Virus record (IMG/VR): IMGVR_UViG_2888103098_000001
Coordinates: 1,566 to 65,565 of that record
Direction: 5' to 3' (one strand)
Length of the DNA stretch: 64,000 bases
From: a virus
Shown here: positions 1,750-63,484 of the stretch, piece after piece
Numbering within the stretch: position 1 is the first letter of the stretch
How the letters are laid out: each line of letters opens with the position of its first letter
Notes under the pieces: model-generated
The model's database searches: none
What the model was told of the DNA's origin: nothing
What the model saw: the letters and a program-made list of their open reading frames with translations, nothing else
Made by a program: the position numbers and the translations under genes

Positions 1750-1848
1750 TCAACTCGCGCACATAGAAAAGAGATCGAACAGTAGAGAGGCCGTCAGCAT
1801 TGCTATGCTGAGCCAAATCAACTGCCGTAGTTCGTCCGGCGTGGTCAT
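1750..1848 (-). CDS. Possible 32-aa hydrophobic peptide
   Basis: MTTPDELRQLIWLSIAMLTASLLFDLFSMCAS fills the gap between two minus-strand genes; no strong RBS. Confidence 0.3.
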   Translation of the reverse strand: MTTPDELRQLIWLSIAMLTASLLFDLFSMCAS

Positions 1849-1874
1849 TTTCGTACCGTGAATTTTGCTCAAAG

Positions 1875-2384
1875 CTACGCGCTGGCGCCGTTCAGCTTTT
1901 TCAAACGCTCCTTGAAATCGAGGCGCGCATCCTTGTCGAGGACCTGCTCCATCGTGTCGACCACGAGGCGCTGGAACTCGTACATCTGCTTGAGACCATG
2001 GGCCTTTTCCTGGAGCCCCAGGTAGCGATCCATGAGGGAGGAGTAGTTCTTCAGGAAGGTCAGGCGCTCGCCGACATCGTCGCTGCTGTCGAGGTCGCGC
2101 TGCAGGCGCTTCATCGAGTTCAGCGCCGCCTTCACCTCGACGATCAGGCTGTCCGCCTCCTCGTCCAGTGTGTCGCCCGGCTTGAAGATGGCGTCGACCG
2201 TATCGTCCTGGCCAGAGCGGGTGGACGTGACCAGCCGCCGCAGGAACCCCTTAAGCTGTTCGGGATACGGGCATTTCGCGTCGACCAGGAACCCCGGGTC
2301 GAAGTCCATTTGCTGCCGGATCGCCTCCAGGCTGAGCCCGAGGGTTTGCGGAAGGCTTGGGTAGATCCGATCTTCGTCCGACAT
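1875..2384 (-). CDS. Helical hypothetical protein, possible terminase small subunit
   Basis: ATG 2384 with GAGGA RBS; helical/coiled-coil protein; lies next to, but divergent from, terL. Confidence 0.45.
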   Translation of the reverse strand: MSDEDRIYPSLPQTLGLSLEAIRQQMDFDPGFLVDAKCPYPEQLKGFLRRLVTSTRSGQDDTVDAIFKPGDTLDEEADSLIVEVKAALNSMKRLQRDLDSSDDVGERLTFLKNYSSLMDRYLGLQEKAHGLKQMYEFQRLVVDTMEQVLDKDARLDFKERLKKLNGASA

Positions 2385-2541
2385 CGTTGGTCCTCTCGGG
2401 GCACCGGATATAGTGGGCACATTTCAGCATTTCTAGGCGGGCGATAGACCTCAATCAGTGTTGATGTAGTAAAATTGACACTAAAAACTTCATCGACCAC
2501 ACCCCACATATCTGAGATCTGAGATCATCTGGCCAACCTAA

Positions 2542-2907
2542 ATGTCTGATCATGCTGCGAAAAACGCACGGTACGAAAGTGACCGTGGGCCCTGGGTGAT
2601 CAAGCACCCGGATGCGACCCCGTTGGCACCGTGGTTCGTGGCGCTGATGCCGATTGATCTCGACGACCCCGCGAGCCCCGTCAACCCGGGGTTGGTCGCC
2701 GGCAGCGAGCGCGCCCAAGAGGCGCTGCAGTTCGCCCGGGAGATCGACGCGGTTCGCTATCGCCGGGCGTATCTCCACCCGGGCATCGCCTGGGTGATCG
2801 AGGCGGTGCCGCCCCGCGTCGGACCGCCGACCTGGGCCGAGGCCGAGCCTGACCCGCTGCTCGAAGCGCTCCAGGAGATGGAAGCCGAAGCGAGCCTACG
2901 GCCGTGA
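2542..2907 (+). CDS. Hypothetical phage protein
   Basis: ORF with GC-rich codon usage; GTGA overlap with the next gene; start uncertain. Confidence 0.55.
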   Translation: MSDHAAKNARYESDRGPWVIKHPDATPLAPWFVALMPIDLDDPASPVNPGLVAGSERAQEALQFAREIDAVRYRRAYLHPGIAWVIEAVPPRVGPPTWAEAEPDPLLEALQEMEAEASLRP

Positions 2908-5134: not shown

Positions 5135-6711
5135 TGGCCGACAACCTCTCCGGCAAACTGCTGTCCATCATCCCCTTCAAGAAGAAAGCGAAGGCGGGCG
5201 GCACGGCCATCACCGCGACCTACAATCCGACTGCGGCAGACCAGGTTCTGACCCAGCCGACCTATCGCGACCACCTGGACGACATCTTCACGTCGCGCCA
5301 GGCTGACAACAGCCAGACGCTGATGCGGTCGCTGATGCAGAACGACCCGGACGTGTCCGGGACGGTCAACGGCTACCTGACGCTCGCCGACACCCAGATG
5401 ATTGCCTACGTCGAGGACATCGACGGCAACGTGGACGCGGAGAAGAGCCGCGAGCTGCAGCAGCTGATCACCAAGCTGTCGAACCAGACCGACTTCACGC
5501 AGGGCTTCCAGCTGAAGCAGGGCCTGTACCGGCAGTGTGAAGAGCTGCGCTACATGCTGCTGATGCGGGGCGCGATCGGCGCCGAGCTGGTCTTCGACAA
5601 GGCCGGCCTGCCCGACGCCATCCGCAACGTCGACATGGCCGGCATCCGCTGGACCGAGAAGCAGCCCGGCCAGTACAAGCCCGGCCAGATCGTGGCCGGC
5701 CGCTCGGACCCGGTCCCCATCGACACGCCGGCCTTCATGGTCGGCTTCTATCGGCGCGACCCGACCAACATCTACACCGCGTCCCCGTTCGTCTCCGTGA
5801 TCAACACGGTGGCCGCCCGGCAGCAGGTCATCAACGACCTGTACCGGATCATGCGCGTGAACGGCTACCCGCGCATCGAGATCAAGGTGCTGGAGGAGAT
5901 CCTGCGCAAGAACATGCCGCCGGGCCTGAACGCCCCGGGGCAGGAGACCCAGCGCCAGGACTGGCTGAACGCGCGCTTCGCCGAGATCCAGACGGCCTTC
6001 GACAACCTGTCGGTCGACCAGTCCATCGTCCACTCGGACGCGATCGAGCTGAAGATCATCAACGACAAGGCCCCCGGCATGGCGGTCAACGTCGAACCGA
6101 TCATCAACGTCCTGAACGCCCAGAACCAGGCGGCGCTCAAGACGATGTCGACGATCCTCGGTCGTGGCTCCTCGGGCGTGAACACCGGCTCCGTGGAAGC
6201 ACGCCTGGCCGCGCTCTACGCCGACCAGCTCAACGAGCCCATCGCCGACCTGCTGAGCCGGATGTTCTCCTTCGTGCTGCAGCAGGGCGGCTATGCCGGC
6301 TTCGCCAAGGTCGAGTTCGACCCGGCCGAGCTGCGGCCCTGGACCGAGCTTGAGCCCCAGCTCACCCTCCGCTCGCAGCGGCTACGCCAGGACCTGTCGG
6401 ACGGGCTGATCACCGACATCGAGTACCACCTCTGGGTCTACAAGCGCCTGCCGCCTGATGGGACGCCCGAGCTGTCCGGCACCGGCTTCCTCACCCCGGC
6501 CGCGCCAGACGAGGGAACCGGCGCCGATGGCGCGTCCGGGTCCAGCACCCCGGTCAAGCCGGAGAGCGTGAGCCCGAAGACCGACAGCGTCGGCCGCGCA
6601 TCGAGCCCGGCCCGGACCCGCGCCACGGCCGGCGCCCGGAAGCAGACGCGCCGCCTCGTGAACACGCCGCTGGCCGCCGCAGCACTGGAGATGATCCGCT
6701 CCGCTTCCTAA
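5134..6711 (+). CDS. Portal protein
   Basis: 525 aa gene between terminase and protease; size and synteny. Confidence 0.8.
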   Translation: MADNLSGKLLSIIPFKKKAKAGGTAITATYNPTAADQVLTQPTYRDHLDDIFTSRQADNSQTLMRSLMQNDPDVSGTVNGYLTLADTQMIAYVEDIDGNVDAEKSRELQQLITKLSNQTDFTQGFQLKQGLYRQCEELRYMLLMRGAIGAELVFDKAGLPDAIRNVDMAGIRWTEKQPGQYKPGQIVAGRSDPVPIDTPAFMVGFYRRDPTNIYTASPFVSVINTVAARQQVINDLYRIMRVNGYPRIEIKVLEEILRKNMPPGLNAPGQETQRQDWLNARFAEIQTAFDNLSVDQSIVHSDAIELKIINDKAPGMAVNVEPIINVLNAQNQAALKTMSTILGRGSSGVNTGSVEARLAALYADQLNEPIADLLSRMFSFVLQQGGYAGFAKVEFDPAELRPWTELEPQLTLRSQRLRQDLSDGLITDIEYHLWVYKRLPPDGTPELSGTGFLTPAAPDEGTGADGASGSSTPVKPESVSPKTDSVGRASSPARTRATAGARKQTRRLVNTPLAAAALEMIRSAS

Positions 6712-6721
6712 AAGTTAGGAA
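6705..6721. promoter_or_regulatory. 17-bp dyad box TTCCTAAAAGTTAGGAA (class B) upstream of head genes
   Basis: Perfect 6-bp arms TTCCTA/TAGGAA; followed by sigma70-like TTGCAG-16-CTATCT starting near 6740. Confidence 0.55.
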
Positions 6722-8429: not shown

Positions 8430-8468
8430 GCTGACCTGGTCAGCGCCTGAACTACGCCCATAGCCGGC

Positions 8469-8483
8469 GGTACACTTCGTACC
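8469..8483. promoter_or_regulatory. Class A operator copy (13/15) inside a longer inverted repeat, 8463-8489
   Basis: GCCGGC-GGTACACTTCGTACC-GCCGGC. Confidence 0.7.
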
Positions 8484-8522
8484 GCCGGCCGGGGCGACAC
8501 GAATACCAGGTTCATCTTCAAC

Positions 8523-8537
8523 GGTACGTCTCGTACC
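8523..8537. promoter_or_regulatory. Class A operator copy (14/15) upstream of major capsid gene
   Basis: GGTACGTCTCGTACC. Confidence 0.75.
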
Positions 8538-13003: not shown

Positions 13004-13020
13004 TTCCTAATTTCTAGGAA
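13004..13020. promoter_or_regulatory. 17-bp dyad box TTCCTAATTTCTAGGAA (class B)
   Basis: Same arms as 6705-6721; lies between the divergent Arc-like and major tail genes. Confidence 0.6.
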
Positions 13021-47532: not shown

Positions 47533-47563
47533 GAGCGCACGGTACGAATTTGACCGTGCGCTC
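47533..47563. promoter_or_regulatory. Extended inverted repeat containing a degenerate class A site, upstream of RNR
   Basis: GAGCGCACGGT-ACGAATTTG-ACCGTGCGCTC. Confidence 0.6.
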
Positions 47564-47571
47564 GGGACAAA

Positions 47572-48672: not shown

Positions 48673-48681
48673 GTTGATCTC

Positions 48682-52609: not shown

Positions 52610-53421
52610 CAGTGCATGAACCTCCGCAGCACGGCGTCGCCGGCCGCTGCGTTCTCGGTCCCGGTGGCGAGGTTTCGGTGCCAGTCGTCCGGCATCGGCA
52701 GGAAGCCGACGATCTGCCAGAAGGCGCGGAGCTGCTCGGCCTGGTCGGGCTCGCACATGCGGCCGGCCATCGCCTCCTTCACGCCGGCCTCGACGAACAG
52801 CGCCGGCCGGGGGCGGCCGTCGACCAGCTCCTGCATGGCGGCCTGGAGCAGGTCCGGCAGGCAGCGGGCGAAGGCCTTGCCGCCGAAGCCCGGCATCCCG
52901 GGGATCTTGTCCGAGGGATCGCCGCAGAGCGCCTTGAACAGGCGGATGTGGCAGGGCTCGACGAGCACGTCCTTGGTGTGGTCCGCCGGATCCATGACGA
53001 TCTTGAGCGGCTTCACGTCGACCCGGACCCGGTCGCGTTGGAGCGCGAGCAGGTCGCGGTCGATGGTGTGGACCAGCACGTCCTGCGTGCTGCCGTAGGT
53101 GTCGCAGAGGTGGGCGATCACGTCGTCCGCCTCACGGCCCGGGACCGCCACCTGGATCGCCCGGGTGTGGGCGAGGGCGTCCCGGGTCAGGTCGATCAGG
53201 GCGCGCAGGCCGTCCGTCAGGGAGGAGGGGCGGTCCTTGTAGCCGGGGTAGATTGCCCGGCGGGCCTTGATCGAGCCGGTGCCCTCGAAGCACCACACGG
53301 CCACGTCACCGGGCCGGAGCTGGAGCATCTCGCTGAACACCGTCCTCGGCCCGCGGCCGAGGTGGTCCGTATCGAAGCGGCGCCGGAGCACGGCCATGCC
53401 GTCGAAGATCTGGATGCTCAT
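52609..53421 (-). CDS. 5'-3' (flap) exonuclease
   Basis: IFDG, YPGYK, EADDVI, TIDRDL, GDPSDKIPG.PGFGGK helix-3-turn-helix motif. Confidence 0.9.
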   Translation of the reverse strand: MSIQIFDGMAVLRRRFDTDHLGRGPRTVFSEMLQLRPGDVAVWCFEGTGSIKARRAIYPGYKDRPSSLTDGLRALIDLTRDALAHTRAIQVAVPGREADDVIAHLCDTYGSTQDVLVHTIDRDLLALQRDRVRVDVKPLKIVMDPADHTKDVLVEPCHIRLFKALCGDPSDKIPGMPGFGGKAFARCLPDLLQAAMQELVDGRPRPALFVEAGVKEAMAGRMCEPDQAEQLRAFWQIVGFLPMPDDWHRNLATGTENAAAGDAVLRRFMH

Positions 53422-53828
53422 CAGTAGTCGGTCCAGCGTGCGGGCGGCTGCCGGAAGCGCGCGTCCTGGCGCGCATCCAGGCGGCGCGCGGCGCCACGGC
53501 GCTCGACGAACTCGACGACACCCCACCAGATCAGGGCGCAGATGATGCTGACCGTGCCGGCGTAGAGGAAGAAGATGCCCAGCTTGGCCAGCAGCCAGCC
53601 GGTGAGCGGGACCGGCCAGGCGAGCAGGTAGGCCCAGGACCAGAGGTCGTCGCTCTCGAAGCGCGGGCTCAGTAGCCAGGCGTGGACCAGGGCGCCGACG
53701 CCCAGGTACTTCGCGACGCTGAACAGATGCCGCACCAGGGGGCGGCGGTTGAAATTGGCCTCCTGGCAGAGGGTGGTGAAGGTCTCACGGTCGACGGAGA
53801 TCTGGGATGGCTTCTCGTTCTCGTTCAC
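53421..53828 (-). CDS. Membrane protein
   Basis: Two hydrophobic segments; GAGGT RBS before GTG 53828. Confidence 0.6.
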   Translation of the reverse strand: MNENEKPSQISVDRETFTTLCQEANFNRRPLVRHLFSVAKYLGVGALVHAWLLSPRFESDDLWSWAYLLAWPVPLTGWLLAKLGIFFLYAGTVSIICALIWWGVVEFVERRGAARRLDARQDARFRQPPARWTDY

Positions 53829-53856
53829 AGGGCACCTCGGTACGAAACGGACGGAC

Positions 53857-53889
53857 AAAAAAGCCCGTGCCTCGGGCGAGACACGGGCT
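53857..53889 (-). terminator. Intrinsic terminator (minus strand)
   Basis: AGCCCGTG...CACGGGCT followed by TTTTT on the minus strand; abuts the class A site at 53839-53853. Confidence 0.8.
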
Positions 53890-53918
53890 GGAAGTCAGGG
53901 CCTAGGCCCGGGTGGCGC

Positions 53919-54608
53919 TTAGGCGGCCTTCTTGCCGCTCTTGGCCGAGGCGGCCTCGTCGATCACCTCGTAGCCGAAGACGCCGTAGTCCTGGCCCGAG
54001 CCCTTCTTCGCGACCGCGACGAGCCGGACCGGGAACGCCTTCTCCGCACCGACCTTCGGGTACTGCTCCTTCAGGAAGGCGCCGAACGCCTTGGAGTTCA
54101 TGTACGAGATCGAGAGGCCGACGATGGTGCCGGCCGGGACCGGGCCACCCTCCTTGCGGTTGTAGTCCTGGAGCAGCCGGACGGGCAGCTCGATCAGGTC
54201 GGACGGGTAGGAGTTGCCGTCCATCTTCTTGCCGTCCGCGATGACGGCGGACCAGTTCTGACGCGACCGGGCCTCGGTCACACCGTCCCAGGAGGTGAGG
54301 TACTGCACGCCCGAGGGCGTGTTCACGCGGAGGACGTAGCCGGCCTTGGCGTCCTTGAAGGCCATCTCGACCTCGATGGCGTCGTGGAGCTGCTTGTCCT
54401 TGCCGAAGCGGATGCCGAGGTCGGAGACGGAGAGGTAGACCTCGACGTTCATGGACGCGCTGTCCATGAAGTCCATCAGGGAGCGCGACTGCCCGGCGGC
54501 GACGGGGGCGCTGGCGGCCGGGGCAGCAGCCACGGCGGTCGAGGTGGCGGGGGTCTGGTCAGCGGCCTCGGAAGCGGCGGCGAGGGCGCGAGCGATAGCG
54601 TCGGTCAT
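53919..54608 (-). CDS. Replication-associated protein, possible ssDNA-binding protein
   Basis: Highly biased codons; own promoter and terminator; lies between helicase and flap nuclease. Confidence 0.5.
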   Translation of the reverse strand: MTDAIARALAAASEAADQTPATSTAVAAAPAASAPVAAGQSRSLMDFMDSASMNVEVYLSVSDLGIRFGKDKQLHDAIEVEMAFKDAKAGYVLRVNTPSGVQYLTSWDGVTEARSRQNWSAVIADGKKMDGNSYPSDLIELPVRLLQDYNRKEGGPVPAGTIVGLSISYMNSKAFGAFLKEQYPKVGAEKAFPVRLVAVAKKGSGQDYGVFGYEVIDEAASAKSGKKAA

Positions 54609-54676
54609 TTCAATTCCTAACTTGACTGGGACTTGGACTGGGAAATCGGTAGTACGTTTCTGACCACCGAGCATCG

Positions 54677-54705
54677 AGATAGAGGGAGATCTGCTAGTTG
54701 TCCAG
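54677..54705 (-). promoter_or_regulatory. Sigma70-like promoter CTGGAC-17-CTATCT flanked by two class A sites
   Basis: -35 at 54700-54705, -10 at 54677-54682; operator-like sites at 54651-54665 and 54740-54754. Confidence 0.55.
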
Positions 54706-54757
54706 ACCCTCTACCGCGATTGGGGAGGCTGCGGCATTCTGTCCGTTTCGTACAGAG

Positions 54758-56167
54758 CTACCACGGCAAAGCGACACGACCGCGCTCGACCAGCGTGGCA
54801 TCTTGCGACTTCCGCTTGGTGAGCCGCATGATGTGCTGGTCGATGCTGTCGGTGTAGGTGTAGACCTTGATGCGGAGCGCGGCCTGCCGGGCCTGGCGCA
54901 TGGCGCGCTTGTAGGCCTGGAAGAACGCGGTGTCCTGGTAGTCCATGCTGACGAACAGCACGTCCTGGACCTCGCGGCGCCCGCAGAACTGCCAGTTGTA
55001 GCCGCAGTCGGCGACCTGCGGCGAGCCGATGATCGTGTCCAGCTCGCCCGACCGGAAGGCGCGATCGACCTTCGCCGCCTGGGCAGGGGTGACCTCGCCG
55101 TTGATGATGCCAGCGCGCCGGCCGGCGTGCGTGGCTGCGTCGAGCAATTGGCGCTGCTGCGGGACGAGGGCGGCGTACGCCAGCATCGGCCGGCCGAGCG
55201 CAGTCATCTTCTCGCAGTCGCTGATGAACTCGGACAGCTTGCCCGGGGTCTCACCCCGGCAGATGTCCACGGTGCCGATCCCGCCCTCCATCAGGTTCGG
55301 GAACACGTTCGGGTGCTCCATGATCTGGCGGGCCCGGGTGAACGCCACGCCGGGCTTGGTGCCGTCGATGAAGAAGTTCTCCAGCTCCAGGATCGCCTCG
55401 TCGCGGAAGCGATCGTAGGCCTGGCGCTGGCGCTCGTTCATCGCCGTGCGGTGGACCTCGACGACGATCTCCTCGGGCCCATGCACGTCGGTCCAGAGGC
55501 GCTTGATCGAGTGCTTGGAGAGGATCGCCTCCAGGCGGTCGAAATTGCAGTGGCCGGTGACCTTGCCGGTCCACGGATCCACGATGTCGTGCATCTGGCT
55601 GAAGGCCTCGGGCGTGCCATAGTAGCGGGGCTCGATGATCTGCAGCGCCGGGTAGATGGTGCTCGGCCGGCCGTTGTAGACGGTGCCGGTCATCGGCACG
55701 AACCACAGGTCGTCGCCACGCTGGCGGCACCAGCGATAGAGCGCCTGGGTGCGCCGGCTCTCGTGGCCGCCAAACGCCTTGTGCCACTCGTCGATGTCGA
55801 TCCCCTTATAGTCGGCTGGGATGATGTCGGCGGTCAGCTCGAAGCGCTTGTAGCCCATGAGCAGGAGCTTCACCCGCGGGTCGGCGATGATCGCCGCGCA
55901 CTCGGCGGCCGTGCCATCGACGATCGCGACCTCGCCCGGGGCCCACTCGCCCCAGAGCATGGCCTCGTCATAGTTCTTGTCGAGCAGCTTCTTGGGCTGC
56001 AGCCATAGGGATTTGTGACCGTGCTTATCCCAGCGGGCACGCTGGAGCACGCAGATGGTCGGCGTCTTGCCGGTGCCGGGCTCGCCGCCGTGGATCGTGC
56101 GGCGCTCCTTGAAGAACAGCCGCCCCAGATCCTGGATTTGGTCGGGTCGAAGTTCTCGATCTGACAT
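54758..56167 (-). CDS. SF2 (SNF2-like) DNA helicase
   Basis: GEPGTGKT Walker A, IDEWH Walker B variant, MTGT, GYNWQ, QAYKRAMR. Confidence 0.85.
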   Translation of the reverse strand: MSDRELRPDQIQDLGRLFFKERRTIHGGEPGTGKTPTICVLQRARWDKHGHKSLWLQPKKLLDKNYDEAMLWGEWAPGEVAIVDGTAAECAAIIADPRVKLLLMGYKRFELTADIIPADYKGIDIDEWHKAFGGHESRRTQALYRWCRQRGDDLWFVPMTGTVYNGRPSTIYPALQIIEPRYYGTPEAFSQMHDIVDPWTGKVTGHCNFDRLEAILSKHSIKRLWTDVHGPEEIVVEVHRTAMNERQRQAYDRFRDEAILELENFFIDGTKPGVAFTRARQIMEHPNVFPNLMEGGIGTVDICRGETPGKLSEFISDCEKMTALGRPMLAYAALVPQQRQLLDAATHAGRRAGIINGEVTPAQAAKVDRAFRSGELDTIIGSPQVADCGYNWQFCGRREVQDVLFVSMDYQDTAFFQAYKRAMRQARQAALRIKVYTYTDSIDQHIMRLTKRKSQDATLVERGRVALPW

Positions 56168-56198
56168 GCTATGCTCCTAGATAGCTAGGGAGATAAAA

Positions 56199-56558
56199 AT
56201 GGACTTGAATATAGTCAGCATACATAATCATGGTGATGCAGATAACGAATATGTACTCTTGAAGGCCAGCGCTGATATAGACTTAAAGCATTGGGCGCTA
56301 TGCGATACTACTTACGTGTCAGACACAACAATCTCCAATACTCTGCGCCATTTTTACTGGTTCATATCCACCGAGGTAAGATCCGGAGAGTATGTTGTAC
56401 TATTCACTAAGAAAGGTAAATACATAAAGGATAAAGATGTAAATAATAACGTGATGCACAAATTTTATTGGAATTCAAACCAAGCAATTTGGAATAATAG
56501 TGGTGATGCAGCTGTGCTGTTTAATATGCGAACTTGGGCAGTCAAAAGGGCGAGATGA
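56199..56558 (+). CDS. AT-rich moron, lamin-tail-domain-like Ig fold (putative)
   Basis: NEYVLL...GEYVVLFTKKG...IWNNSGDAAVL resembles the LTD pattern; antisense to flanks; low GC. Confidence 0.55.
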   Translation: MDLNIVSIHNHGDADNEYVLLKASADIDLKHWALCDTTYVSDTTISNTLRHFYWFISTEVRSGEYVVLFTKKGKYIKDKDVNNNVMHKFYWNSNQAIWNNSGDAAVLFNMRTWAVKRAR

Positions 56559-56563
56559 CCTCA

Positions 56564-57082
56564 CTACTCTGGAACCAGGTCGGCCTCGACCGTGCCCGGC
56601 AGCGGCCCGCGACCGTGCCGGCGCGAGCGCTTCCCGCGGATCTTTTCGATGACGGCGGGATCCCACACGCGGGCCAGCTCGGTCTCGCCGCAGGCCAGCA
56701 TGTCGTGGCCAGTGTACTCGGCCAGCACGGCGAGTGTGGTCGCGACACCGCCGAACTCCTGCGCCGGCACGCCGACCGGGCGGTCGAAGACGTAGTGGAC
56801 GAGCTGCAGCGCTGCGTTGCGCCCCAACCCAAGCGACTGGGCCAGCTCCAGGCTCTCCTCGACGAAGCGAGCGACCCGCTCCTCGGTATCGGTGGGATCG
56901 TCCTTGGTGACCACATCGAGCCAAGCCTGGCAGCGGGCTTGGAAGGTGTCTTTGAGCTTCTCGACCTCGACGGCGATGCGTTCGAGCAGCTCGGCATAGC
57001 GTGGCAGGATACGGGGCACGATGTCCCGCGCCTTGCGGATCGCGGTCGCGAGCCTGGTCGGATCGTAGGGAACGGCGGTCAT
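56564..57082 (-). CDS. All-alpha NTP pyrophosphohydrolase-like (MazG superfamily) phage protein
   Basis: ERVARFVEESLELAQSLG...QEFGGV...GETELARVW. Confidence 0.55.
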   Translation of the reverse strand: MTAVPYDPTRLATAIRKARDIVPRILPRYAELLERIAVEVEKLKDTFQARCQAWLDVVTKDDPTDTEERVARFVEESLELAQSLGLGRNAALQLVHYVFDRPVGVPAQEFGGVATTLAVLAEYTGHDMLACGETELARVWDPAVIEKIRGKRSRRHGRGPLPGTVEADLVPE

Positions 57083-57663
57083 GGCTGCCTCCTGACGAGG
57101 TGATGGAGCTGGCGACGGCCTTCGGCCGCCCAGTCGTGGTCGGGGTCGAGACCCTCGGGGGTGAGGAGCGTGGCGCCGGGCAGCTTGATCGGCCCGGAGA
57201 GGATCAGGTTGCGGGAGCGCGGCAGGGCGGCCAGCGTCTCCATCTCGACCAGGTCGCTGGGCTCCAGGTCGGTGAGGACCTGCGGCGCGGCGTTGGTGAG
57301 GGTGAGCAGCGGCACGACGCGCTGCGCCTTCGGCCGCCTGAGCCCGAGCAGGCTTTCGATGATGCGGCCAGTCGATGGCGTCATCCGCACAAGCCGGTAC
57401 AACCAGGCCTGGTCCTGCGGGCGGACATGGTAGAGGCCGCCGTCCTGGTCCGGGCTCATCGCCCGGACGAAAGGGTGATCGAGGATCGGGCCCGGCTCGG
57501 GTTGGCCGAGTTGGTGCGGACAGATTAGCCAGCGTGGGGCGACGATCTGGAAGGGGCTCGTGAGCCCCTCCAGGCGAGCGTTGAGGCACCGGGCGCCGGC
57601 CCGCTCGTGCAAGAAGACGAGGTTGTCGTGCCGATGGAGGCCGTAGCCCGGTGCCGGGATCAT
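57079..57663 (-). CDS. Hypothetical protein
   Basis: ATGA-coupled on both sides. Confidence 0.6.
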   Translation of the reverse strand: MIPAPGYGLHRHDNLVFLHERAGARCLNARLEGLTSPFQIVAPRWLICPHQLGQPEPGPILDHPFVRAMSPDQDGGLYHVRPQDQAWLYRLVRMTPSTGRIIESLLGLRRPKAQRVVPLLTLTNAAPQVLTDLEPSDLVEMETLAALPRSRNLILSGPIKLPGATLLTPEGLDPDHDWAAEGRRQLHHLVRRQP

Positions 57664-57872
57664 GCAACACCCTGAGTGGTAGAGGAGGACTGGAGGCGCC
57701 TCGCGAGGAACCGGGTCAGGCACTGCCTGGTGAGCGGGTCGACGCGCATGCGGTCGTTGGCGGGGTCCGCCATGGTGCTGAGCCGGCCGAGCAGATCGTT
57801 GAAGCGATGCTTGGACGGCAGCTTGTGGTGGACTTGGATCAGCTGGAAATAAGGTTTGAGGTCTACGATCAT
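57660..57872 (-). CDS. Hypothetical protein
   Basis: ATGA-coupled. Confidence 0.55.
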   Translation of the reverse strand: MIVDLKPYFQLIQVHHKLPSKHRFNDLLGRLSTMADPANDRMRVDPLTRQCLTRFLARRLQSSSTTQGVA

Positions 57873-58327
57873 GCGGCTAGGTCCCTGTCGCGTGCTGCAG
57901 TGAGCAGCTCCTCCACGTTTATCTGGAGCAAGTCTGCGATCTTCTGGATCTCTGTTACTGTGAAATCGTGGTAACCCTGCTCCATGAGTGAGAGCTTGGC
58001 CCGGTTGGCGAAGGCGTGCTGCTTGCAGAACTCTTCGCTCTTCATCTCTGAGTTCAGCCGCGCCTCGGCGAGCTTGCGGCCGATGCGGACCTGGACCGGG
58101 CCGAGGATGGTCCGCTCCTGGTACTTCCGGTGGTAGTCGTGGCGCTGTCGTGGTCGTTGGGCGCGGCTGGCGTCGCGTTGCTTGCGCTCAGCCTCGGTCA
58201 GCGAGGCTGTGATGCGGGCCACATAGGTCCGCAGCGTGCTCTGCGTGTAGTTCGGCAATTCGTGGAAGATGTCATTGAGGCAATGACCCTTGAGGATCAT
58301 CGCCTTGACGTTTTGTTTCGCGCTCAT
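57869..58327 (-). CDS. XRE-family HTH transcription regulator
   Basis: IGRKLAEARL...LSLMEQG...TVTEIQKIADLLQINVEELL; possible second N-terminal HTH. Confidence 0.75.
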   Translation of the reverse strand: MSAKQNVKAMILKGHCLNDIFHELPNYTQSTLRTYVARITASLTEAERKQRDASRAQRPRQRHDYHRKYQERTILGPVQVRIGRKLAEARLNSEMKSEEFCKQHAFANRAKLSLMEQGYHDFTVTEIQKIADLLQINVEELLTAARDRDLAA

Positions 58328-58983
58328 GCTTCAGCGAGCCTCCGGTCGATCATGCGCTTGCGCGTGCCGTGGGCCGGGAAGCCGACGATGACCCCACGGG
58401 GCCGGGCGCGAGAGCACAGGTTGCAGGTCGAGCAGGTGACCTGCTCGGCGTAGGTGGCCGGGCAGACCGCGATCTCGCGGCCGGCCGGGGTGCGGTGGCG
58501 GCCACGGCCGGCGTCGGACGGCAGGACCGTCACGACGCTCATGTCCGGGGCCTCATCGAGCAGGGCGTCCGCATGGGCCGCGCTGTCGGTGGAGCAGTTG
58601 ATGTGGAAGCCGAGCTTCCGAGCTTCTCGGTACGTTTCGTACTGACGGCCGTGGGTAAAGACAATCGCCTCGCGACCGCCATTGGCGCGGGCCAGGGCAA
58701 GCACGTCGTCGTGCGCCGGCGGCAGGTCGCCAGCGGTGCCGTAGCGCCAGCGGATCCGCTTCGGCAGCGCGCGGATCAAGTGGCACAGCTGCTCCAGCGT
58801 GACCTGGTTGACGGCGGTGCCGGCGGTTAAGGAGCGCCAGAAGATCGAGCCCGGACCGTGCTCGGCGTAGCAGCCGGCACCGCGCAGGCCGCAGGAGGTG
58901 GGGCAGGTCGCGGCAGAGGCCATGACGGAAGGCATTGGTCCGAGCTTGCGGTTCTGGGATGCACGGCGGAAGTGGAAGAACAT
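58324..58983 (-). CDS. Cysteine-rich phage protein (gp88-like / radical-SAM-related, putative)
   Basis: CPTSC...GCYA cluster, GDL motif, C-terminal CPA...CSTCNLC. Confidence 0.5.
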   Translation of the reverse strand: MFFHFRRASQNRKLGPMPSVMASAATCPTSCGLRGAGCYAEHGPGSIFWRSLTAGTAVNQVTLEQLCHLIRALPKRIRWRYGTAGDLPPAHDDVLALARANGGREAIVFTHGRQYETYREARKLGFHINCSTDSAAHADALLDEAPDMSVVTVLPSDAGRGRHRTPAGREIAVCPATYAEQVTCSTCNLCSRARPRGVIVGFPAHGTRKRMIDRRLAEA

Positions 58984-59116
58984 GGTGATCCTCGCGAGCT
59001 GGCGGTACGTTTCGGACCGCGGGATTTGGAGGTGTGTCGGCCGCTGGGCTAACGGCGCTTGCTTGGCCTACCTATTTTTTCTAGTCTCTTGTATTAGCTA
59101 CAATTGAGGGGTCGAA

Positions 59117-60100
59117 GTGGATACAAATATACCGAACCCCGACGAACTTGAACAAACGGCACTCCGCATATACTTTGTCGCATTCCACCAAGTACTAAAT
59201 ATTATTGATGACCTATTGAATAAACATCAATTGCTTCGGGCTAAATTGGACGGACGATCAATAGTTGCCATTTCGGATGCCGAAAATTCCCGAACAACCG
59301 AAGATAACAGCGATGATATCGCAGAATACATTCGCTTGGCTCAGCCTGATTTGCAATTAAGCTACACTCTGATTCAGCAAAGTCAAGAACTTGGCCTAAA
59401 GTCTATTATCTGCAGAGAAAGCCCTTTTCTTCTTTTACTTGGTTCCGATGTTCGCAGCTGGGGGCACGACAAAGATTTTGCTGATCTGAGAACAATTGAT
59501 GCGGGCGATTTAATAAAAGTCGTGAATGCCATAAAACCAAACAAACTTGATGAAAAATTTTCGAATACGTTCAACGCTCTGCGACGAGGCCGGAACAAAA
59601 TCAGCCACCTGGGGCAATTCCGGGACCAGATTGATCCAATTTATCTGCTCGATATTTTGATCGATCAATATAGATCTCTCTATACCGATCGAACCTGGAT
59701 CCAAGATTTATTATTGTTTGAAAGCTCCCATCGCCATACCATTTTTACCTCCGCCCACCTATCTGACCAGAATAGTGCTCTATCCACATACGCATCAGTC
59801 GAGGATGCAACCACTCTTGCACAGCAAAAATTCTTACTAGGGGCAAGCAAAAATTGCAAACTCTACCGCTGCCCCAAGTGTCATTCCGGTGATTATATGG
59901 GGTTAGAAATGGGTATTGGAAGGACCCTTGCAGTCGAACGGCGCTCAACCAAAGCAAGTTGTCTGATATGCCTCGAAGAATTCTCTATCAAATATAGGCA
60001 ATGCATTTTCTGCCGTGAGCGCGTTGCTTTTATTGATAGAGGCGGCGACGAAGACATGTGTGGTTATTGTGGCGAGAAGTGGCGTGACCATCAGCCTTAA
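59117..60100 (+). CDS. AT-rich moron: HEPN-motif protein with C-terminal zinc ribbons (candidate Abi/RNase)
   Basis: QELGLK helix plus RNKISH (RX4H), then four CxxC pairs (CPKC, CLIC, CIFC, CGYC); antisense to flanks; low GC. Confidence 0.65.
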   Translation: MDTNIPNPDELEQTALRIYFVAFHQVLNIIDDLLNKHQLLRAKLDGRSIVAISDAENSRTTEDNSDDIAEYIRLAQPDLQLSYTLIQQSQELGLKSIICRESPFLLLLGSDVRSWGHDKDFADLRTIDAGDLIKVVNAIKPNKLDEKFSNTFNALRRGRNKISHLGQFRDQIDPIYLLDILIDQYRSLYTDRTWIQDLLLFESSHRHTIFTSAHLSDQNSALSTYASVEDATTLAQQKFLLGASKNCKLYRCPKCHSGDYMGLEMGIGRTLAVERRSTKASCLICLEEFSIKYRQCIFCRERVAFIDRGGDEDMCGYCGEKWRDHQP

Positions 60101-60108
60101 CCTACTTT

Positions 60109-60131
60109 CCCCGCCCGGACACCGGGCGGGG
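60109..60131. terminator. Hairpin between the convergent HEPN-like and rIIB genes
   Basis: CCCCGCCCGG-ACA-CCGGGCGGGG. Confidence 0.5.
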
Positions 60132-60142
60132 TGCTGCGCCGG

Positions 60143-61237
60143 TCAGACCTCGTCGGCGAAGACGATGCGCTTGACGTAGCTGTTGAGGACGCCCTGCTCG
60201 CCGTCGTGCTCGGTCTGCAGGATCAGGCGGTAGTTGCAGCCCTCATCGACCCGGACAACCGGGTAGATGCCGGCCGGCGGCCAGCCGCCCTCGACGGTCT
60301 CGACCAGGTCGCCGACCTGGGCCAGGAGCGCCGGCTGCTCGACCAAAGCCTCCTCCCGCTCGTCTTCCTCCTCGGGTAGGTCGTCCGGCTCCTGCTCGTC
60401 CTCGACACCCTGGTCTTGATCGACCTCGTCGAGCGCGGCGTCGTTCGGCGCCGGGAGCTGCGAGCGGGGCGTGAGGACCGGGCGGCCGAGGATGGTGGCC
60501 GCGTAGTCCTCGTCCAGCTCGTCGATCACCTCGTAGGCGCAGATCCGCATCTTGGTGCCCTGGTAGGAGAAGGGCACGGAGACCACGTCGTGCGGCCACA
60601 CGGCGATCAGCATGACCCGGTGCGCGTCCGAGCCGTAGTGGCTCTTCACGTAGTCCGGGGTGCCGACGTGCAGGCCGGTCGAGCAGCAGGCGTTCGGGTT
60701 GGCGTCGACCTTGTCCCGGTCCATGGCCGGCTTGTCGCCGATCATGTTTCGGAAGGTGCGGCCGGTGTGGCAGTCCATGTAGTCCTGGTTGACTGCCTTG
60801 TAGGCGACGAAGCGGCCGTCCTCCAGGAAGCCGAGCTGGCTCTTGTCGAGAAACACCGGCAGGCGCTCGATGGCGGCCTGGGTCGGGTTCTGCATGAGCG
60901 AGCCGAGCGCGTTCCAGAGCGGCGCGAAGGGCTCGCCGGCACGCTGGAACTCCAGAATGCGATCGACCCAGAGGCCGGTGAGCACCTGGCCCTTGAACAC
61001 GATGTCCTGGCCGATGAACGTGATGGCGCCGTAGCTGTCGCGCAGCAGCGCCTTGCGAACGTCGACCAGCGCCATGAGGTGCTCGGCGTCGTGGTCGCCC
61101 GGGGCCTGCAGCAGCTTGCGGGCCTCGTCGAAGCGCTCGTGCTCGCGGGTCAGCGAGTAGGGCTTGCCCTTCACGAAGAAGGTCAGCGACTGGTTGCAGA
61201 TGGTGAAGGGAAGACGAGCAAGCGAGGTCATAGCCAT
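60143..61237 (-). CDS. rIIB: rIIB-like protein
   Basis: LMQNPT...LPVFL...EDGRFVAYKAV...DCHTG...VDANPNACCSTGLHVG; directly downstream of rIIA. Confidence 0.85.
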   Translation of the reverse strand: MAMTSLARLPFTICNQSLTFFVKGKPYSLTREHERFDEARKLLQAPGDHDAEHLMALVDVRKALLRDSYGAITFIGQDIVFKGQVLTGLWVDRILEFQRAGEPFAPLWNALGSLMQNPTQAAIERLPVFLDKSQLGFLEDGRFVAYKAVNQDYMDCHTGRTFRNMIGDKPAMDRDKVDANPNACCSTGLHVGTPDYVKSHYGSDAHRVMLIAVWPHDVVSVPFSYQGTKMRICAYEVIDELDEDYAATILGRPVLTPRSQLPAPNDAALDEVDQDQGVEDEQEPDDLPEEEDEREEALVEQPALLAQVGDLVETVEGGWPPAGIYPVVRVDEGCNYRLILQTEHDGEQGVLNSYVKRIVFADEV

Positions 61238-61313
61238 ATCCTGTATGGTTGGTGGTACGAAATGGACAATGGAAGGCGGGCGCACCTGTCCCGTGGGACA
61301 GGTGCATTTGAGA

Positions 61314-63446
61314 CTACTTGGCGATCAAACCGAAGTAGTGATCGATGGCCTTTTGACCTTCCTTTGTGAAGGTATAGCCGCCGTAACCGTGCCGGGCGTA
61401 CTGCTGCCACTCGTTGTTGTTGAGGATCAGCGGCAGCATCGGATGGGTCTTCACGACGGCGTACCAGGCGTTCCGAACCGGCAGGGTCGGATCCTTGGCG
61501 ACCGTCTTGAGATCGGTGCCGGTCAGTTCGAGGAGCACGGCCGCCAGGCGGTCGTGATCGTTGTCGTCGCGGACCAGGGTCTCACGAGCCTTCGACAGCG
61601 CGATCATCTCGTAGAAGGCGTCGCGCAGCTGCTGCGGAGCCATGCCGAGATCGACCTTGCGGTCGCGGATCTGGCGCAGCAGCTGCGGGAAGCTGCTGTC
61701 GTTCCAGGGGATCGTCGGGGCGACCTGGGTCGGGTCGATCGCCTCGTCGAGCAACTCGACCAGGTGGTCTCCAAGGGAGATCCAATGGTCCAGCGGAGCC
61801 TCGTCCTCGCCCAGCACGACGCAGGTCATGCCGCTGCCGATCTTGTCTTCGAGGCCGTTCTTGCGCATCCGCCGCAGGATGCTCAGCAGCGGGTCGTTGT
61901 AGCGGTCGTTGAACTCACGGGTCTCACCCTCGAAGGACAGGGTGTAGGTGAGCTTCTTCCCGCGGCCGGCGATCCGCACGTAGAGCAGCTCGTCGTCGTG
62001 ATCGACCAGCTCCTGCCAGGTGGCGCAGGACGCCAGGTCCATGACCTTGCGGCGCTTGACGCTCTCGGGCCGCTTCTCCCGCTTGCCACGCTCCTGCTTC
62101 GGCAGCTTGATGTCGTCGAGCAGGACGTAGTCCGGGTTGCCCATCCGCTGCAGGGCGTAGGGCAGCTCGGGACGCTTGCACCGGACCCACAGCAGCTTCT
62201 GGTCGATGAGGCCAGCCAGCTCCAGGCGCTCCAGGGAGCGGCTGGTGTTGTGCTGAATGACGATCGTGCGATCCTGCAGCTCGGCCGGGTTGATGGTCCA
62301 GTCCGCCTTGAACGGCACCGGGGCGCCCGGGAAGGTGTTCCGGCCGCGCATCTCCGGCCATTTGGCCGCCTTCACGCAGCCGCTCGGGAACAGCTCGTCC
62401 TCGAAGCTGAAGCCGCGCCAGCCCAGCTCGCGGGCGACGTACCACTGGTTGCCGGGCAGCGTGCTGGCGATGTCGGTCGCCTTCCAGCGCGCCTGGAAGT
62501 AGGTATCGCAGGCGTCGATCTGAGCCTTGGCCGACCGGGTCCAGTCGACCTTGTAGGCGTCGAACAGCGCCTGCAGCCCGGACTGGGTGCGGTCGTCGTA
62601 CTGCAGGTTCTCACGCGAGGCGGACACCGAGATGGTGCCGATCTTGGCCTCGAACACGATGCAGGTCCCGGCGTCGATCATGTTCGTCGAGGGCATGTTG
62701 TAGGGGTCGATCGGGTACATGACCGGGCCGAGCATGACCTGCGGGCCGTCGAACGGCACGCTCTCCTTGCGGTAGACGGTCCAGCCATCGCCCTTGCTCA
62801 GCACCCGCGGAGTGCCGAAGTCGACGGCCGGGGTGATGACCGGCCGGGGGTGGAACGACCACAGCACGGCCTTGGCGTGCTCGTGGAAGCGGTTGATGTC
62901 GCTCTCGCGGACCGGGAAGGAGATCTCCAGGCCGGTGCCGCGATCCTCGGCATCGAGCACCCACTCACCCAGGAACGAGATCTGGATTTTGCCGGCTTCG
63001 GACACGCCGATCGAGTAGACCCGGCGGAACCCGCGGAAGCGGGAGATGACGGTGAAGGAGCCGGCGCCGTCCGAGCGCATGAGGTAGGCGAGCGCGGCCT
63101 TCGAGCCGAAGCCCCAGCCGCCCACGGCGTCATCGTCGCCGTCCTTCGTGCTCTCGCCGATCTTGGCGTACTTGTTCATCATGAACGAGTGCGGCAGGCC
63201 CGGCCCGAAGTCGCGGATCGTATACTGCGGGTTGAAGCGGGTCGGCAGCTCGATCTCGAACGGCTTCTTGGGGGGCGACACCTCCCAGGCGTTCGTGGCG
63301 TATTCCCGGACCGGGTAGACGATCTTGTCGGACACCATGCCGGTGAGCAGGGCGTAGACGATCTTCGCGTCGCCGCCGACGCCGGTCTGTTTGACCTGTT
63401 GCGCGCCTTCGCCAACGGTCTCGTTGAGAGCATGAACCATACGCAT
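61314..63446 (-). CDS. rIIA: rIIA-like protein (N-terminal GHKL/HSP90-type ATPase)
   Basis: PVREYATNAWE, IRDFGPGL, ESTK...GGWGFGSK GHKL motifs. Confidence 0.88.
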   Translation of the reverse strand: MRMVHALNETVGEGAQQVKQTGVGGDAKIVYALLTGMVSDKIVYPVREYATNAWEVSPPKKPFEIELPTRFNPQYTIRDFGPGLPHSFMMNKYAKIGESTKDGDDDAVGGWGFGSKAALAYLMRSDGAGSFTVISRFRGFRRVYSIGVSEAGKIQISFLGEWVLDAEDRGTGLEISFPVRESDINRFHEHAKAVLWSFHPRPVITPAVDFGTPRVLSKGDGWTVYRKESVPFDGPQVMLGPVMYPIDPYNMPSTNMIDAGTCIVFEAKIGTISVSASRENLQYDDRTQSGLQALFDAYKVDWTRSAKAQIDACDTYFQARWKATDIASTLPGNQWYVARELGWRGFSFEDELFPSGCVKAAKWPEMRGRNTFPGAPVPFKADWTINPAELQDRTIVIQHNTSRSLERLELAGLIDQKLLWVRCKRPELPYALQRMGNPDYVLLDDIKLPKQERGKREKRPESVKRRKVMDLASCATWQELVDHDDELLYVRIAGRGKKLTYTLSFEGETREFNDRYNDPLLSILRRMRKNGLEDKIGSGMTCVVLGEDEAPLDHWISLGDHLVELLDEAIDPTQVAPTIPWNDSSFPQLLRQIRDRKVDLGMAPQQLRDAFYEMIALSKARETLVRDDNDHDRLAAVLLELTGTDLKTVAKDPTLPVRNAWYAVVKTHPMLPLILNNNEWQQYARHGYGGYTFTKEGQKAIDHYFGLIAK

Positions 63447-63469
63447 TGGAGATCTCCTGAGAGCTGAGT

Positions 63470-63484
63470 GGTACGTTTCGTACC
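63470..63484. promoter_or_regulatory. Class A operator, perfect copy, overlapping the putative rIIA promoter TTGACC-17-TACCAC (minus strand)
   Basis: GGTACGTTTCGTACC; -35 at 63491-63496, -10 at 63468-63473. Confidence 0.8.

Follow-up and report, generated by a model that had tools for sequence, protein, structure and literature searches.

In the Cluster O mycobacteriophages, siphoviruses with genomes of ~70 kb, a 17-bp dyad repeat, TGTTCGG-NNN-CCGAACA (TGTTCGGNNNCCGAACA), is present in more than 30 copies throughout the genome; about 40% of the copies are intergenic, about 30% are situated at gene 5' ends, and the leftward early arm is enriched in them (PMC4351075, PMC6439249). The authors proposed a dimeric regulator, yet doubted that the repeat has a transcriptional role (PMC4351075, PMC6439249). 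The stoperators of Cluster A phages (L5, Bxb1) are asymmetric sites of 13-14 bp, oriented with transcription and recognized by a monomeric repressor that uses two domains (PMC9283540, PMC6550527). When bound by the repressor they act beyond the classical promoter operators and stop elongation. In lambda, cI and Cro, dimers of the XRE helix-turn-helix (HTH) family, bind odd-length dyads, and the two promoters they control have six operators in all. The repressor of the temperate phage phiC31 binds a 17-bp palindrome of which there are several intergenic copies; phiC31 is an actinophage and its repressor a large, multi-isoform protein, which sets it apart from the system described below.

We analysed a 64-kb stretch of viral DNA (the window), in which a 15-bp palindrome, GGTACG-TTT-CGTACC, scored as GGTACGTTTCGTACC, was searched for on both strands; 100 dinucleotide shuffles served as the background for its matches. 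At up to three mismatches the window had 23 matches compared to 0.66 expected, with a shuffle maximum of 3. Three copies were perfect (23400, 43633 and 63470) and four had one mismatch (8523, 45564, 58629 and 59004), exactly the numbers given in a preliminary description of the window. In a search of the 6.25-Mb genome, all 13 copies with at most one mismatch fell within C1:357309-429350, inside one integrated prophage of 89.9 kb, and the host genome outside the prophage had no such copy. A reversed control pattern gave 0 and 1 matches genome-wide. With a weight matrix at a threshold of at least 12 bits, we found 36 sites (class A) in the prophage (~90 kb) compared to 28 in 6.1 Mb of the host (0.45 per 100 kb). 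Motif density, set against the host and shuffled sequence as the preliminary description had proposed, thus bore out its claim, and we confirm that the repeats are one dispersed family of sites specific to this prophage. The network extends past the window in both directions, from -15848 to 67977 in window coordinates, and a 45-bp direct repeat, with copies at -21850 and 68005, bounds the prophage. A search for near-identical phage records found none.

The sites are found mainly between genes or closely 5' of start codons. While the surrounding region is 89% coding, 17 of the 36 sites are intergenic, 11 are within the 5' extension of a longest ORF, and only about 6 are truly intragenic, which leaves about 30 non-coding; most copies do lie upstream of a start codon, as had been claimed. 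Class A sites precede replication, head and tail units, in agreement with the earlier account, and partition and integration units as well. Outside the window, three of them occupy a divergent 170-bp region adjoining the integrase gene, one contains the ATG of the ParA gene, and one, at -2467, is positioned between convergent gene ends. For conservation we used two comparison genomes, G2 (~84% nucleotide identity) and G1 (~74%), with an overall range of 68-87%. The sites of the window are as follows (no strand is assigned to the sites).

1843-1857: site 5' of the primase gene, with one half degenerate (GGTCATTTTCGTACC); G2 and G1 have perfect copies at the orthologous positions.
2570-2584: site in the divergent region separating the leftward arm from the packaging/structural arm; kept in G2.
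8469-8483: first site of a tandem pair 5' of the major capsid gene, within a 27-bp palindrome.
8523-8537: site 28 nt 5' of the major capsid start (8566); kept in G2 and G1.
14031-14045: site 6 nt 5' of the tail assembly chaperone gene, counted to its conserved ATG (14052).
23400-23414: perfect site 11 nt 5' of a tail gene start (23426), right after a low-GC inserted gene.
36652-36666: weak site 20 nt 5' of a 72-aa gene.
38345-38359: site touching the ATG of a dATP/dGTP diphosphohydrolase-like gene (gene on the minus strand).
43633-43647: perfect site 0-3 nt 5' of the RecU-like resolvase ATG, an arrangement common to all three genomes.
45295-45309: weak site within a 92-aa gene.
45564-45578: site within the 3' end of a 684-aa gene, 79 nt 5' of the 92-aa gene; kept in G2 and G1.
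47541-47555: half-site only, GGTACGAATTTGACC, 18 nt 5' of the 684-aa gene start.
48075-48089: weak intragenic site.
53839-53853: site 4 nt past an intrinsic terminator; 10 nt after it comes a GTG start that has a GAGG ribosome-binding site.
53889-53862: the intrinsic terminator adjoining the 53839 site, found by the terminator scan.
54651-54665: site 5' of the SSB-like gene, with a perfect copy in G2.
54740-54754: site at the helicase gene 3' end, 89 bp from the 54651 site.
58629-58643: site within the DUF7227 gene, ~300 bp 5' of the XRE gene; kept in G2 and G1.
59004-59018: site 20 nt 5' of the DUF7227-XRE operon.
61254-61268: site flanked by the rIIA terminator-like hairpin and the rIIB start, adjoining a class B dyad.
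63470-63484: perfect site in the rIIA promoter spacer.

Of 18 starts listed in the preliminary description, 17 were recovered; the one at 47541, with 4-5 mismatches, is under the matrix threshold, though its distance from a start is typical, and the sites at 45295 and 48075 had been missed. The centres of the tandem pair at the capsid gene are 54 bp apart. The centre of the 23400 site is flipped in G2, and G1 keeps this site though it has no inserted gene.

The network resembles the Cluster O repeat in its inverted arms, its 3-bp A/T-rich centre (mostly TTT or AAA), an orientation that carries no meaning, a copy number above 30 (36 here), a placement largely between genes or at gene 5' ends, absence from the host, positions common to relatives, insertions and deletions beside copies, and a dimeric regulator as the proposed binder. 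Of the systems described so far the Cluster O repeat is the closest, but our network is an analogue, not a member, of that family: the sequence and the arm length are different (6 + 3 + 6 here, extending to 19 bp), the host is proteobacterial, and the phage belongs to an unrelated group. Unlike Cluster O, we have here an integrated prophage with sites at the integrase/excisionase switch and with arms that vary (A4/C, T12/G). With the Cluster A stoperators the network shares many dispersed, prophage-specific sites in short intergenic spaces of both early and late genes. Unlike stoperators, it is a dyad with a flipping centre and no fixed orientation to transcription; the palindromic form had been recognized earlier as a difference from L5 and Bxb1. 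The odd-length dyad, three sites in a divergent switch and an operator overlapping a core promoter recall lambda, where operators stand at two promoters, compared to ~36 sites over every module here.

Since the arms vary naturally, RNA pairing could be tested. The dyad symmetry reaches ~19 bp (A-y-core-r-T), since 16 of the 36 sites have A at -2 and 15 have T at +2. Both orientations are found on either arm. The centre is T-rich, at 57-58 of 67 sites for each of the three positions. We also observed a strand bias of the TTT centre in this prophage, 24 plus to 12 minus, which G1 does not keep (17 forward, 13 reverse).

A 6-bp stem with a triloop 5' of start codons could act in RNA, whether as an operator for translation, as a processing site or as a stabiliser, an explanation that would account for the closeness of the sites to start codons in every lineage and for the ribosome-binding site inside the dyad in Seuss and Lumi. 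Five of the 36 sites form palindromes of 25-27 bp, and one flank change, at 64938, is compensated. In the core, however, compensated changes were not in excess and the half-sites varied independently among 98 sites: for pair 4-12 there were 36 left and 19 right variants, with both changed in 6 sites compared to 7.0 expected under independence, and stem changes included 36 uncompensated singles compared to 5 compensated. At least one stem mismatch was present in 63 of the 98 sites, and just 3-4 pairs were left in 31. The loop would flip between UUU and AAA, since the TTT/AAA centre flips between orthologous sites; moreover, sites are also found in divergent and convergent spacers and beside attP. 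We found no Rfam match for the region, no T-run after the stem in the site flanks, and no match of the terminator scan at the dyads, with only the neighbouring hairpin at 53889-53862 reported. The RNA explanation is therefore very improbable. The pattern of variation fits a symmetric protein dimer on DNA rather than an RNA hairpin, and action at the DNA level had been favoured in the preliminary description too.

Conservation in related phages, a check suggested earlier, points the same way for the sites as a set: G2 retains every one of the 19 window sites at its position, and G1 ~12 of 19. Such positional conservation at 68-87% identity indicates that the sites are under selection. Two Methylobacterium/Methylorubrum prophages have 10-12 sites per 20 kb. 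Among public runs, no RNA run contained the stretch; the four runs compared were DNA contigs of relatives with 90-95% identity.

By capsid protein the nearest phages are Seuss, JWF and Lumi. These three and phage 2-1 have neither an integrase nor a serine recombinase, and they have homologous 15-bp dyads of their own just 5' of early starts: GGTTCGTNACGAACC in JWF and 2-1, TTACT-N5-AGTAA in Lumi and TTTACCTNAGGTAAA in Seuss. Because integrase-free relatives carry their own dyads at early genes, the dyad system is older than lysogeny and not an invention of it. The dyads of these relatives are confined to early regions, so the ancestral role was probably early-gene control during lytic growth. 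The temperate Methylobacterium-type lineage is peculiar only in that the dyads have spread into its middle, late and integration modules.

The same comparisons bear on whether the repeats could be recombination sites or mobile regulatory cassettes that shuffle modules, or else centromere-like sites for a ParA system. The PeSL cassettes of T4-type phages are an analogue of the former. The alignment blocks of G1 and G2 end exactly at dyads, with inserted genes directly adjoining them, and the Cluster O repeats flank insertions and deletions (PMC4351075); for the centromere version, the ParA ATG inside a site is suggestive. Against both, position and sequence are conserved at 70-85% identity, which speaks for a role of the sites where they stand. 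In any phage, inserted genes collect at the boundaries of units, relatives without ParA still have dyads, and no ParB-like partner was recognized, the 109-aa gene directly 3' of ParA having no Pfam family. We consider either version scarcely credible.

Two sites belong to promoters that are clearly of sigma-70 type, one of them that of rIIA.

63468-63496, minus strand: sigma-70-like rIIA promoter, with -35 TTGACC, a 17-bp spacer containing the dyad, and -10 TACCAC (TACCGT in G2).

In this promoter and in that of the excisionase-like gene (beside integrase, outside the window, also with a TTGACC -35 in register), the dyad takes up the spacer and reaches the -10. The arrangement TTGACC + 6 nt + dyad + TACC + 2 nt is kept in relatives at these two loci. 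We observed no overall enrichment of a -35 in register (6 observed compared to 4.2 in controls; two loci, each in three genomes), and a strict sigma-70 consensus scan of 53000-64000 found no promoter at the sites, the rIIA promoter included. The sigma70-like promoters claimed earlier at the sites are thus weaker than described: rIIA does have the TTGACC -35 in register, but the strict scan did not recover them. With a good -35 at two loci and an empty strict scan, classical promoter occlusion cannot explain most sites. Several sites touch the ATG, leaving no space for a ribosome-binding site, and a purely transcriptional role does not explain these. TACC + 2 nt as a general -10 was dropped: its T at +2 has a counterpart in the A at -2, which makes it part of the dyad.

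Alternatively, the dyads could be positive elements, the core of a phage-specific promoter used by a phage activator or by a phage-modified RNA polymerase. This would explain a dyad just ahead of nearly every unit's start, including highly expressed late genes such as the capsid gene, and the absence of a host-type -35 at most sites; the sites at 53839 and 61254 stand after terminators and ahead of short leaders, places that call for a new promoter. However, a perfect dyad with a freely flipping centre is unlike directional promoters, and sites 0-28 nt from the ATG are too near it to serve an activator whose centre is at -41 or farther upstream. In both good sigma-70 promoters the dyad takes the position of a repressor, in the spacer and -10, and in the integrase-free relatives the dyads mark early genes, which are necessarily read by unmodified host polymerase. 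Positive elements are thus an unlikely explanation.

If a protein binds the dyads, as we favour, two encoded in the prophage are candidates.

57869-58327, minus strand: 152-aa protein, the best candidate binder, with two HTHs, one sigma-70-region-4-like at the N terminus and one of Cro/C1 (XRE) type at the C terminus.
12760-12987, minus strand: 75-aa ribbon-helix-helix protein, encoded antisense within the late operon, the second candidate binder.

The XRE-type protein is syntenic and is kept wherever the motif is kept; its choice as a candidate in the preliminary description was reasonable. Its recognition helix, NR..L(S/A).MEQGYHDF, is common to four lineages sharing the motif, while the proteins are only 39-49% identical. 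In the orthologues of Seuss, JWF and Lumi the first helix residues differ (SR, TT and SV), in step with the differing dyads. On the other side, positions 3-4 of the helix are not constant across the lineages that share the motif, and the JWF orthologue is a weak match (E = 0.055). When the XRE profile was used to look for more lineages, the only ones with the same motif were two Methylobacterium-type prophages; across 400 genomes of the order there were two distant matches, one of which (G376) had no repeated dyad. The link between the XRE protein and the motif is correlative and confounded by shared descent. We tentatively name this two-HTH protein, whose own operon starts with a site, as the most likely binder; the 59004 site is possibly one of autoregulation of the DUF7227-XRE operon.

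The same operator network could instead be bound by the ribbon-helix-helix protein, or by an unrecognised small protein. The ribbon-helix-helix gene has the same antisense place in this prophage, G1, G2, JWF (gp017, annotated Arc-like) and Seuss (unannotated), and the protein is conserved across the group as well as the XRE protein is. Two GTAC subsites 9 bp apart, or the two inverted heptads of JWF, may suit two dimers, as in the Arc and omega operators. Its gene, however, has no class A site nearby; a different dyad, TTCCTA-N5-TAGGAA, is found just upstream of it, at 13004, at the gene's own promoter. The predicted DNA-facing strand residues are S, L and R here compared to T, M and K in G1 and G2, where the motif is identical. 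A binder of this kind is rather unlikely.

Other candidates were rejected. A Pfam and PHROGs search of ~45 small proteins around the sites detected no DNA-binding domain in the 92-aa (45206-45484), 99-aa (65634-65933), 61-aa (66147-66332) and DUF7227 proteins; the first of these had been proposed as an HTH regulator, which we do not uphold. Two Crp/FNR-type proteins of the left arm were set aside because Crp sites have even spacing and because G1 encodes a weak relative of one (25% identity) and none of the other. As site networks, CTGCTAGCAG and TTCCTA-N5-TAGGAA were too rare.

Taken with the symmetry and placement of the sites, these results make it probable that the repeats are operators for one phage-encoded symmetric (dimeric) DNA-binding protein, which would act as a repressor and may silence the prophage. 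A protein bound at the rIIA or excisionase-like promoter, where the dyad covers the spacer as far as the -10, would shut out RNA polymerase. At many other sites, which have a stop codon or terminator on one side and the next start on the other, binding may block initiation or, as with stoperators, elongation into the next unit. An ancestral system of the Seuss, JWF and Lumi type would have controlled early genes; in the temperate lineage, genes for replication, head, tail, partition and integration would have acquired dyads as well, so that one protein could hold the whole prophage quiet in the lysogen.

A more speculative version, possible though we would not count on it, is that the early-gene shutoff set of the integrase-free Seuss/JWF/Lumi group was co-opted and multiplied in a temperate descendant, where dyads came to stand before replication, capsid, tail, partition and integrase/excisionase units. 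One small protein would then serve as a genome-wide silencer acting largely outside classical promoters, a symmetric counterpart of the stoperator system, with the dyads also being seams for gene insertion.

Dispersed dyad repeats are known in phages, as in Cluster O, and their role was never explained. The prophage is a case from the proteobacteria in which natural variation suffices to rule out an RNA stem. The related phages, each pairing its own dyad with its own version of one candidate regulator, provide a ready-made specificity swap, and the sites of the integrase-free relatives, at early genes only, can be contrasted directly with those of the temperate lineage, which are everywhere. 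The function of such dyad networks becomes testable in this system, which is relevant to how latency is possible for a phage that has a lytic-type replication set.

For the 15-bp dyad GGTACG-TTT-CGTACC (class A sites), we found 23 matches to the 15-mer GGTACGTTTCGTACC with up to three mismatches in the window, compared to 0.66 expected from shuffled sequences. The three perfect and four one-mismatch copies counted in the preliminary description agree with our counts; 17 of its 18 starts hold, 47541 being a mere half-site, and the class A sites at 45295 and 48075 were absent from its list. The window corresponds to C1:362984-426983 of a 6.25-Mb host genome with 69% G+C, and all 13 copies with at most one mismatch in this whole genome fell inside C1:357309-429350. 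A weight matrix made from the class A sites (threshold of at least 12 bits) detected 36 copies in the element and 28 in the other 6.1 Mb, or 0.45 per 100 kb. A similar density in the host chromosome, which the preliminary description named as a refutation of an operator network, was therefore not observed.

The element is an 89.9-kb prophage (window -21850 to 68049, coordinates that are negative or above 64,000 lying outside the window), delimited by a 45-bp direct repeat at C1:341133-341177 and C1:430988-431032. The repeat resembles the 3' end of a tRNA or tmRNA; ARAGORN found no such gene in C1:343001-362983 and C1:426984-440000, two stretches of which the second takes in the right repeat. 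At the right end are a tyrosine integrase gene and, convergent with it, a 69-aa HTH_17 excisionase-like gene. The gene order (primase leftward; packaging, head, tail and lysis rightward; then replication, rIIB, rIIA and small early genes leftward) is the same as in four siphoviruses of 81-85 kb. Capsid protein identity was 54% for Caulobacter phage Seuss, 51-52% for Achromobacter phages JWF and 2-1, and 44% for Xylophilus phage Lumi. A tyrosine integrase or serine recombinase was found in none of the four. Lumi forms clear plaques and is without temperate-phage genes, and JWF is termed temperate in the same paper (PMC9959647).

Close relatives are the IMG/VR records G1 (84 kb) and G2 (a 71-kb provirus), with 68-81% and 72-87% nucleotide identity to the prophage, respectively, as well as prophages of Methylorubrum suomiense and Methylobacterium jeotgali, which makes a host from the Methylobacterium/Methylorubrum group probable. 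One study, probably of metagenomic DNA, contributed four public runs with contigs 90-95% identical to parts of window 44001-64000, so more relatives exist in the environment. We also observed that the gene at 38000-38344 (minus strand) matched the dATP/dGTP diphosphohydrolase N-terminal domain (PF18909, E = 4.5e-30), a hint that phages of this group may modify a base or have an unusual nucleotide metabolism. The left arm carries two Crp/FNR-type regulators, at L066:10440-11150 (minus) and L066:11422-12555 (plus), one of them fused with a response-regulator receiver domain; together with the DUF6894 gene and the two SAM-dependent methyltransferase genes beside them, they are probably cargo.

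At the same matrix threshold, G1 and G2 had 31 and 27 class A sites, respectively, and two Methylobacterium-type loci had 10-12 per 20 kb. Conservation of site positions, proposed earlier as a check, was borne out: every one of the 19 window sites had a homologous site in G2, and about 12 had one in G1. The intergenic DNA around the sites was strongly diverged, and alignment blocks with the relatives often stopped exactly at the dyad. Segments variable among the prophage, G1 and G2 start exactly at class A sites (window 21790-23400, 43650-44630 and 59020-60400); they include a low-GC ABC-ATPase/TOPRIM gene and an antisense low-GC gene.

The prophage region is 89% coding. Seventeen class A sites were intergenic and 11 were located in the 5' extension of the longest ORF; three-way alignments placed 14031 and 43633 likewise just upstream of true starts, and about six sites were truly intragenic. 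The distance from site to start codon ranged from 0 to about 30 nt. For example, ATG abuts the dyad at 43633, 38345, 65934 and -896, and the ATG of a ParA-like gene is within a degenerate class A half (GGTCAT):

L066:13201-13950, minus strand, ParA/MinD-type ATPase gene, then a 109-aa gene without a recognised family

At 53839 and 61254, a terminator or hairpin is followed by the dyad, the ribosome-binding site and the start. The first early gene and the excisionase-like gene diverge from a 170-bp region with three class A sites, whose centres are spaced by 72 and 54 bp; another class A site is situated 14 bp from the attachment core.

The arms of 98 class A sites pooled from the prophage, G1 and G2 varied chiefly at positions 4 and 12 (A to C, T to G), next at 6/10 and 1/15. 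For the pair 4-12 there were 36 left-arm and 19 right-arm variants; both positions were changed in 6 sites compared to 7.0 expected under independence, and single uncompensated changes (36) far outnumbered compensated ones (5). The stem of a would-be RNA hairpin had at least one mismatch in 63 of the 98 sites and kept merely 3-4 pairs in 31. The dyad had no match in Rfam, and no T-run was seen 3' of the stem. The preliminary argument for a DNA-binding dimer over an RNA hairpin is thus confirmed numerically. Positions G2, T3, A13 and C14 are near-invariant, and the A/T-rich centre is exchanged between TTT and AAA in orthologous sites (e.g., 23400, 59004 and 65934). The flanks are symmetric as well: of the 36 sites, 16 have A at -2 and 15 have T at +2, which extends the recognised unit to about 19 bp. 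Judged from sequence, the pattern is the signature of a putative two-fold symmetric protein reading two half-sites. Perfect palindromes of 25-27 bp with site-specific outer arms surround five of the 36 sites, those of 27 bp with a class A core being:

window 8463-8489
L067:932-958 (window 64932-64958)

A compensated outer-arm change between the prophage and G2 at the 64938 palindrome is a loose end for the DNA reading.

In the promoter of the excisionase-like gene, TTGACC is followed after 6 nt by the dyad, whose last four bases with GT form the -10 TACCGT at a 17-bp spacing; both G2 and G1 have the same layout. The ATG is 6 nt past the -10, and the transcript is therefore probably leaderless. 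The same register was found at rIIA (TTGACC, 17 bp, TACCAC; TACCGT in G2). This is the promoter proposed earlier at 63468-63496. A strict consensus scan of 53000-64000 returned no promoter at this or any other class A site in that range. A weaker version can be read at 23400 (-10 CATATT, 6 nt, ATG). Across all sites a -35 in register was not enriched (6 compared to 4.2 in controls). Given both null results, only rIIA and the excisionase-like gene make a good case for occlusion of a host-type promoter; the other sites may act as a roadblock, at weak promoters or in some other way.

Each of the integrase-free relatives has a repeated dyad of its own. Exact copies of GGTTCGT-N-ACGAACC numbered 12 in JWF and 11 in 2-1; every JWF copy precedes a start by 12-24 nt and belongs to either the rightmost early region or the terminal repeat. 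In Lumi, 21 copies of TTACT-N5-AGTAA occupy the terminal repeat and the stretch at 58-82 kb, and they are often 2-3 nt ahead of ATG with the ribosome-binding site in the dyad centre. The Seuss dyad TTTACCT-N-AGGTAAA has five distinct exact sites (seven matches including terminal-repeat copies) ahead of early genes including rIIA, again with the ribosome-binding site within the dyad. None of the dyads of the four phages was found in replication or structural modules, compared to 6 sites in the structural arm, 8 in the replication module and 10 in the left arm of the temperate lineage. The dyads of Seuss, JWF and Lumi are not described in PMC4591317 and PMC9959647. As far as these genomes indicate, the putative operator network is a trait of the phage group, with early-gene control as its probable ancestral role; the genome-wide spread of sites goes with lysogeny. 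The more distant relative Pseudoalteromonas phage KB12-38 is without an XRE orthologue and a 15-bp dyad; it has about 10 copies of an 18-bp palindrome, CGGGGTAACGTTACCCCG, most of them followed by a conserved box, TTAATTAAACTAAAACT.

A host factor is unlikely as the binder because the host is without the sites. Across the group, two genes for DNA-binding proteins keep their syntenic positions. The XRE protein (57869-58327, about 150 aa) has an N-terminal sigma-70-region-4-like HTH and a C-terminal Cro/C1 HTH; it matched HTH_26 (weakly) and PHROGs transcriptional regulators, and its Atlas neighbours combine HTH_3 with Sigma70_r4. Orthologues were found in G1, G2, M. suomiense, Seuss (gp077) and Lumi, and weakly in JWF (gp066). 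The XRE proteins of four lineages with the same motif have the helix NR..L(S/A).MEQGYHDF in common at 39-49% overall identity, and the orthologues of Seuss, JWF and Lumi have divergent first helix residues alongside divergent dyads. A class A site at the start of the DUF7227-XRE operon (59004) and a second inside it (58629) would give autoregulation and, with it, steady XRE expression in the lysogen. A distant element with an XRE relative and no dyad network calls for mild caution. The second protein, a ribbon-helix-helix protein of 75 aa (12760-12987), is encoded antisense within the late operon with no class A site nearby; another dyad, TTCCTA-N5-TAGGAA, is at its own promoter. This dyad has just two copies, one (6705-6721) upstream of the protease/scaffold gene and the other (13004-13020) 14-30 nt upstream of the antisense gene, is not in G1 or G2, and is probably the protein's own operator. 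We tentatively give the XRE protein a nearly even chance of being the class A binder and consider the ribbon-helix-helix protein an unlikely candidate; the remaining probability falls to an unrecognised protein.

The prophage has other palindromes. A second 15-bp dyad, CCATATC-N-GATATGG, has 14 copies with at most two mismatches and is present in G1 too; the copies include:

window 23941-23955, 30743-30757, 41875-41889 and 61234-61248
L066:958-6852 (window -19025 to -13145), nine copies

Seven copies are packed into 1.7 kb of the left arm, 210-375 bp apart, and those at 61234 and 64957 directly adjoin a class A site. A perfect 16-bp palindrome, GATCTGCTAGCAGATC, at L067:2447-2462 (window 66447-66462) belongs to the switch region, where it is flanked by the second and third class A sites; it is conserved in G2, and partial copies of it (CTAGCAG) adjoin sites 23400, 54651 and -6038.

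The closest system described so far is a 17-bp repeat, TGTTCGG-NNN-CCGAACA, of which Cluster O mycobacteriophages have more than 30 copies (PMC4351075); Ryadel has 31 (PMC6439249). Its centre is mostly TTT or AAA without orientation, about 40% of copies are intergenic, the leftward arm is enriched, the repeat is absent from the host and its positions are common to relatives; insertions and deletions are sometimes flanked by copies, and the authors proposed a dimeric regulator, with function unknown (PMC4351075). Stoperators, which are asymmetric, oriented and monomer-bound (PMC9283540), have dispersal in common with class A sites, but the class A dyad is neither asymmetric nor oriented. The reading of class A sites as DNA operators of a putative binder is well supported by the sequence comparisons, while the silencing of the whole genome by a single repressor is a plausible hypothesis. 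The silencing idea fits as an evolutionary extension of early-gene control; the system did not arise for lysogeny. The network belongs to a known, as yet unexplained kind of dispersed repeat, and the class A dyad family comes with natural variants unusually well suited to tests of such networks.
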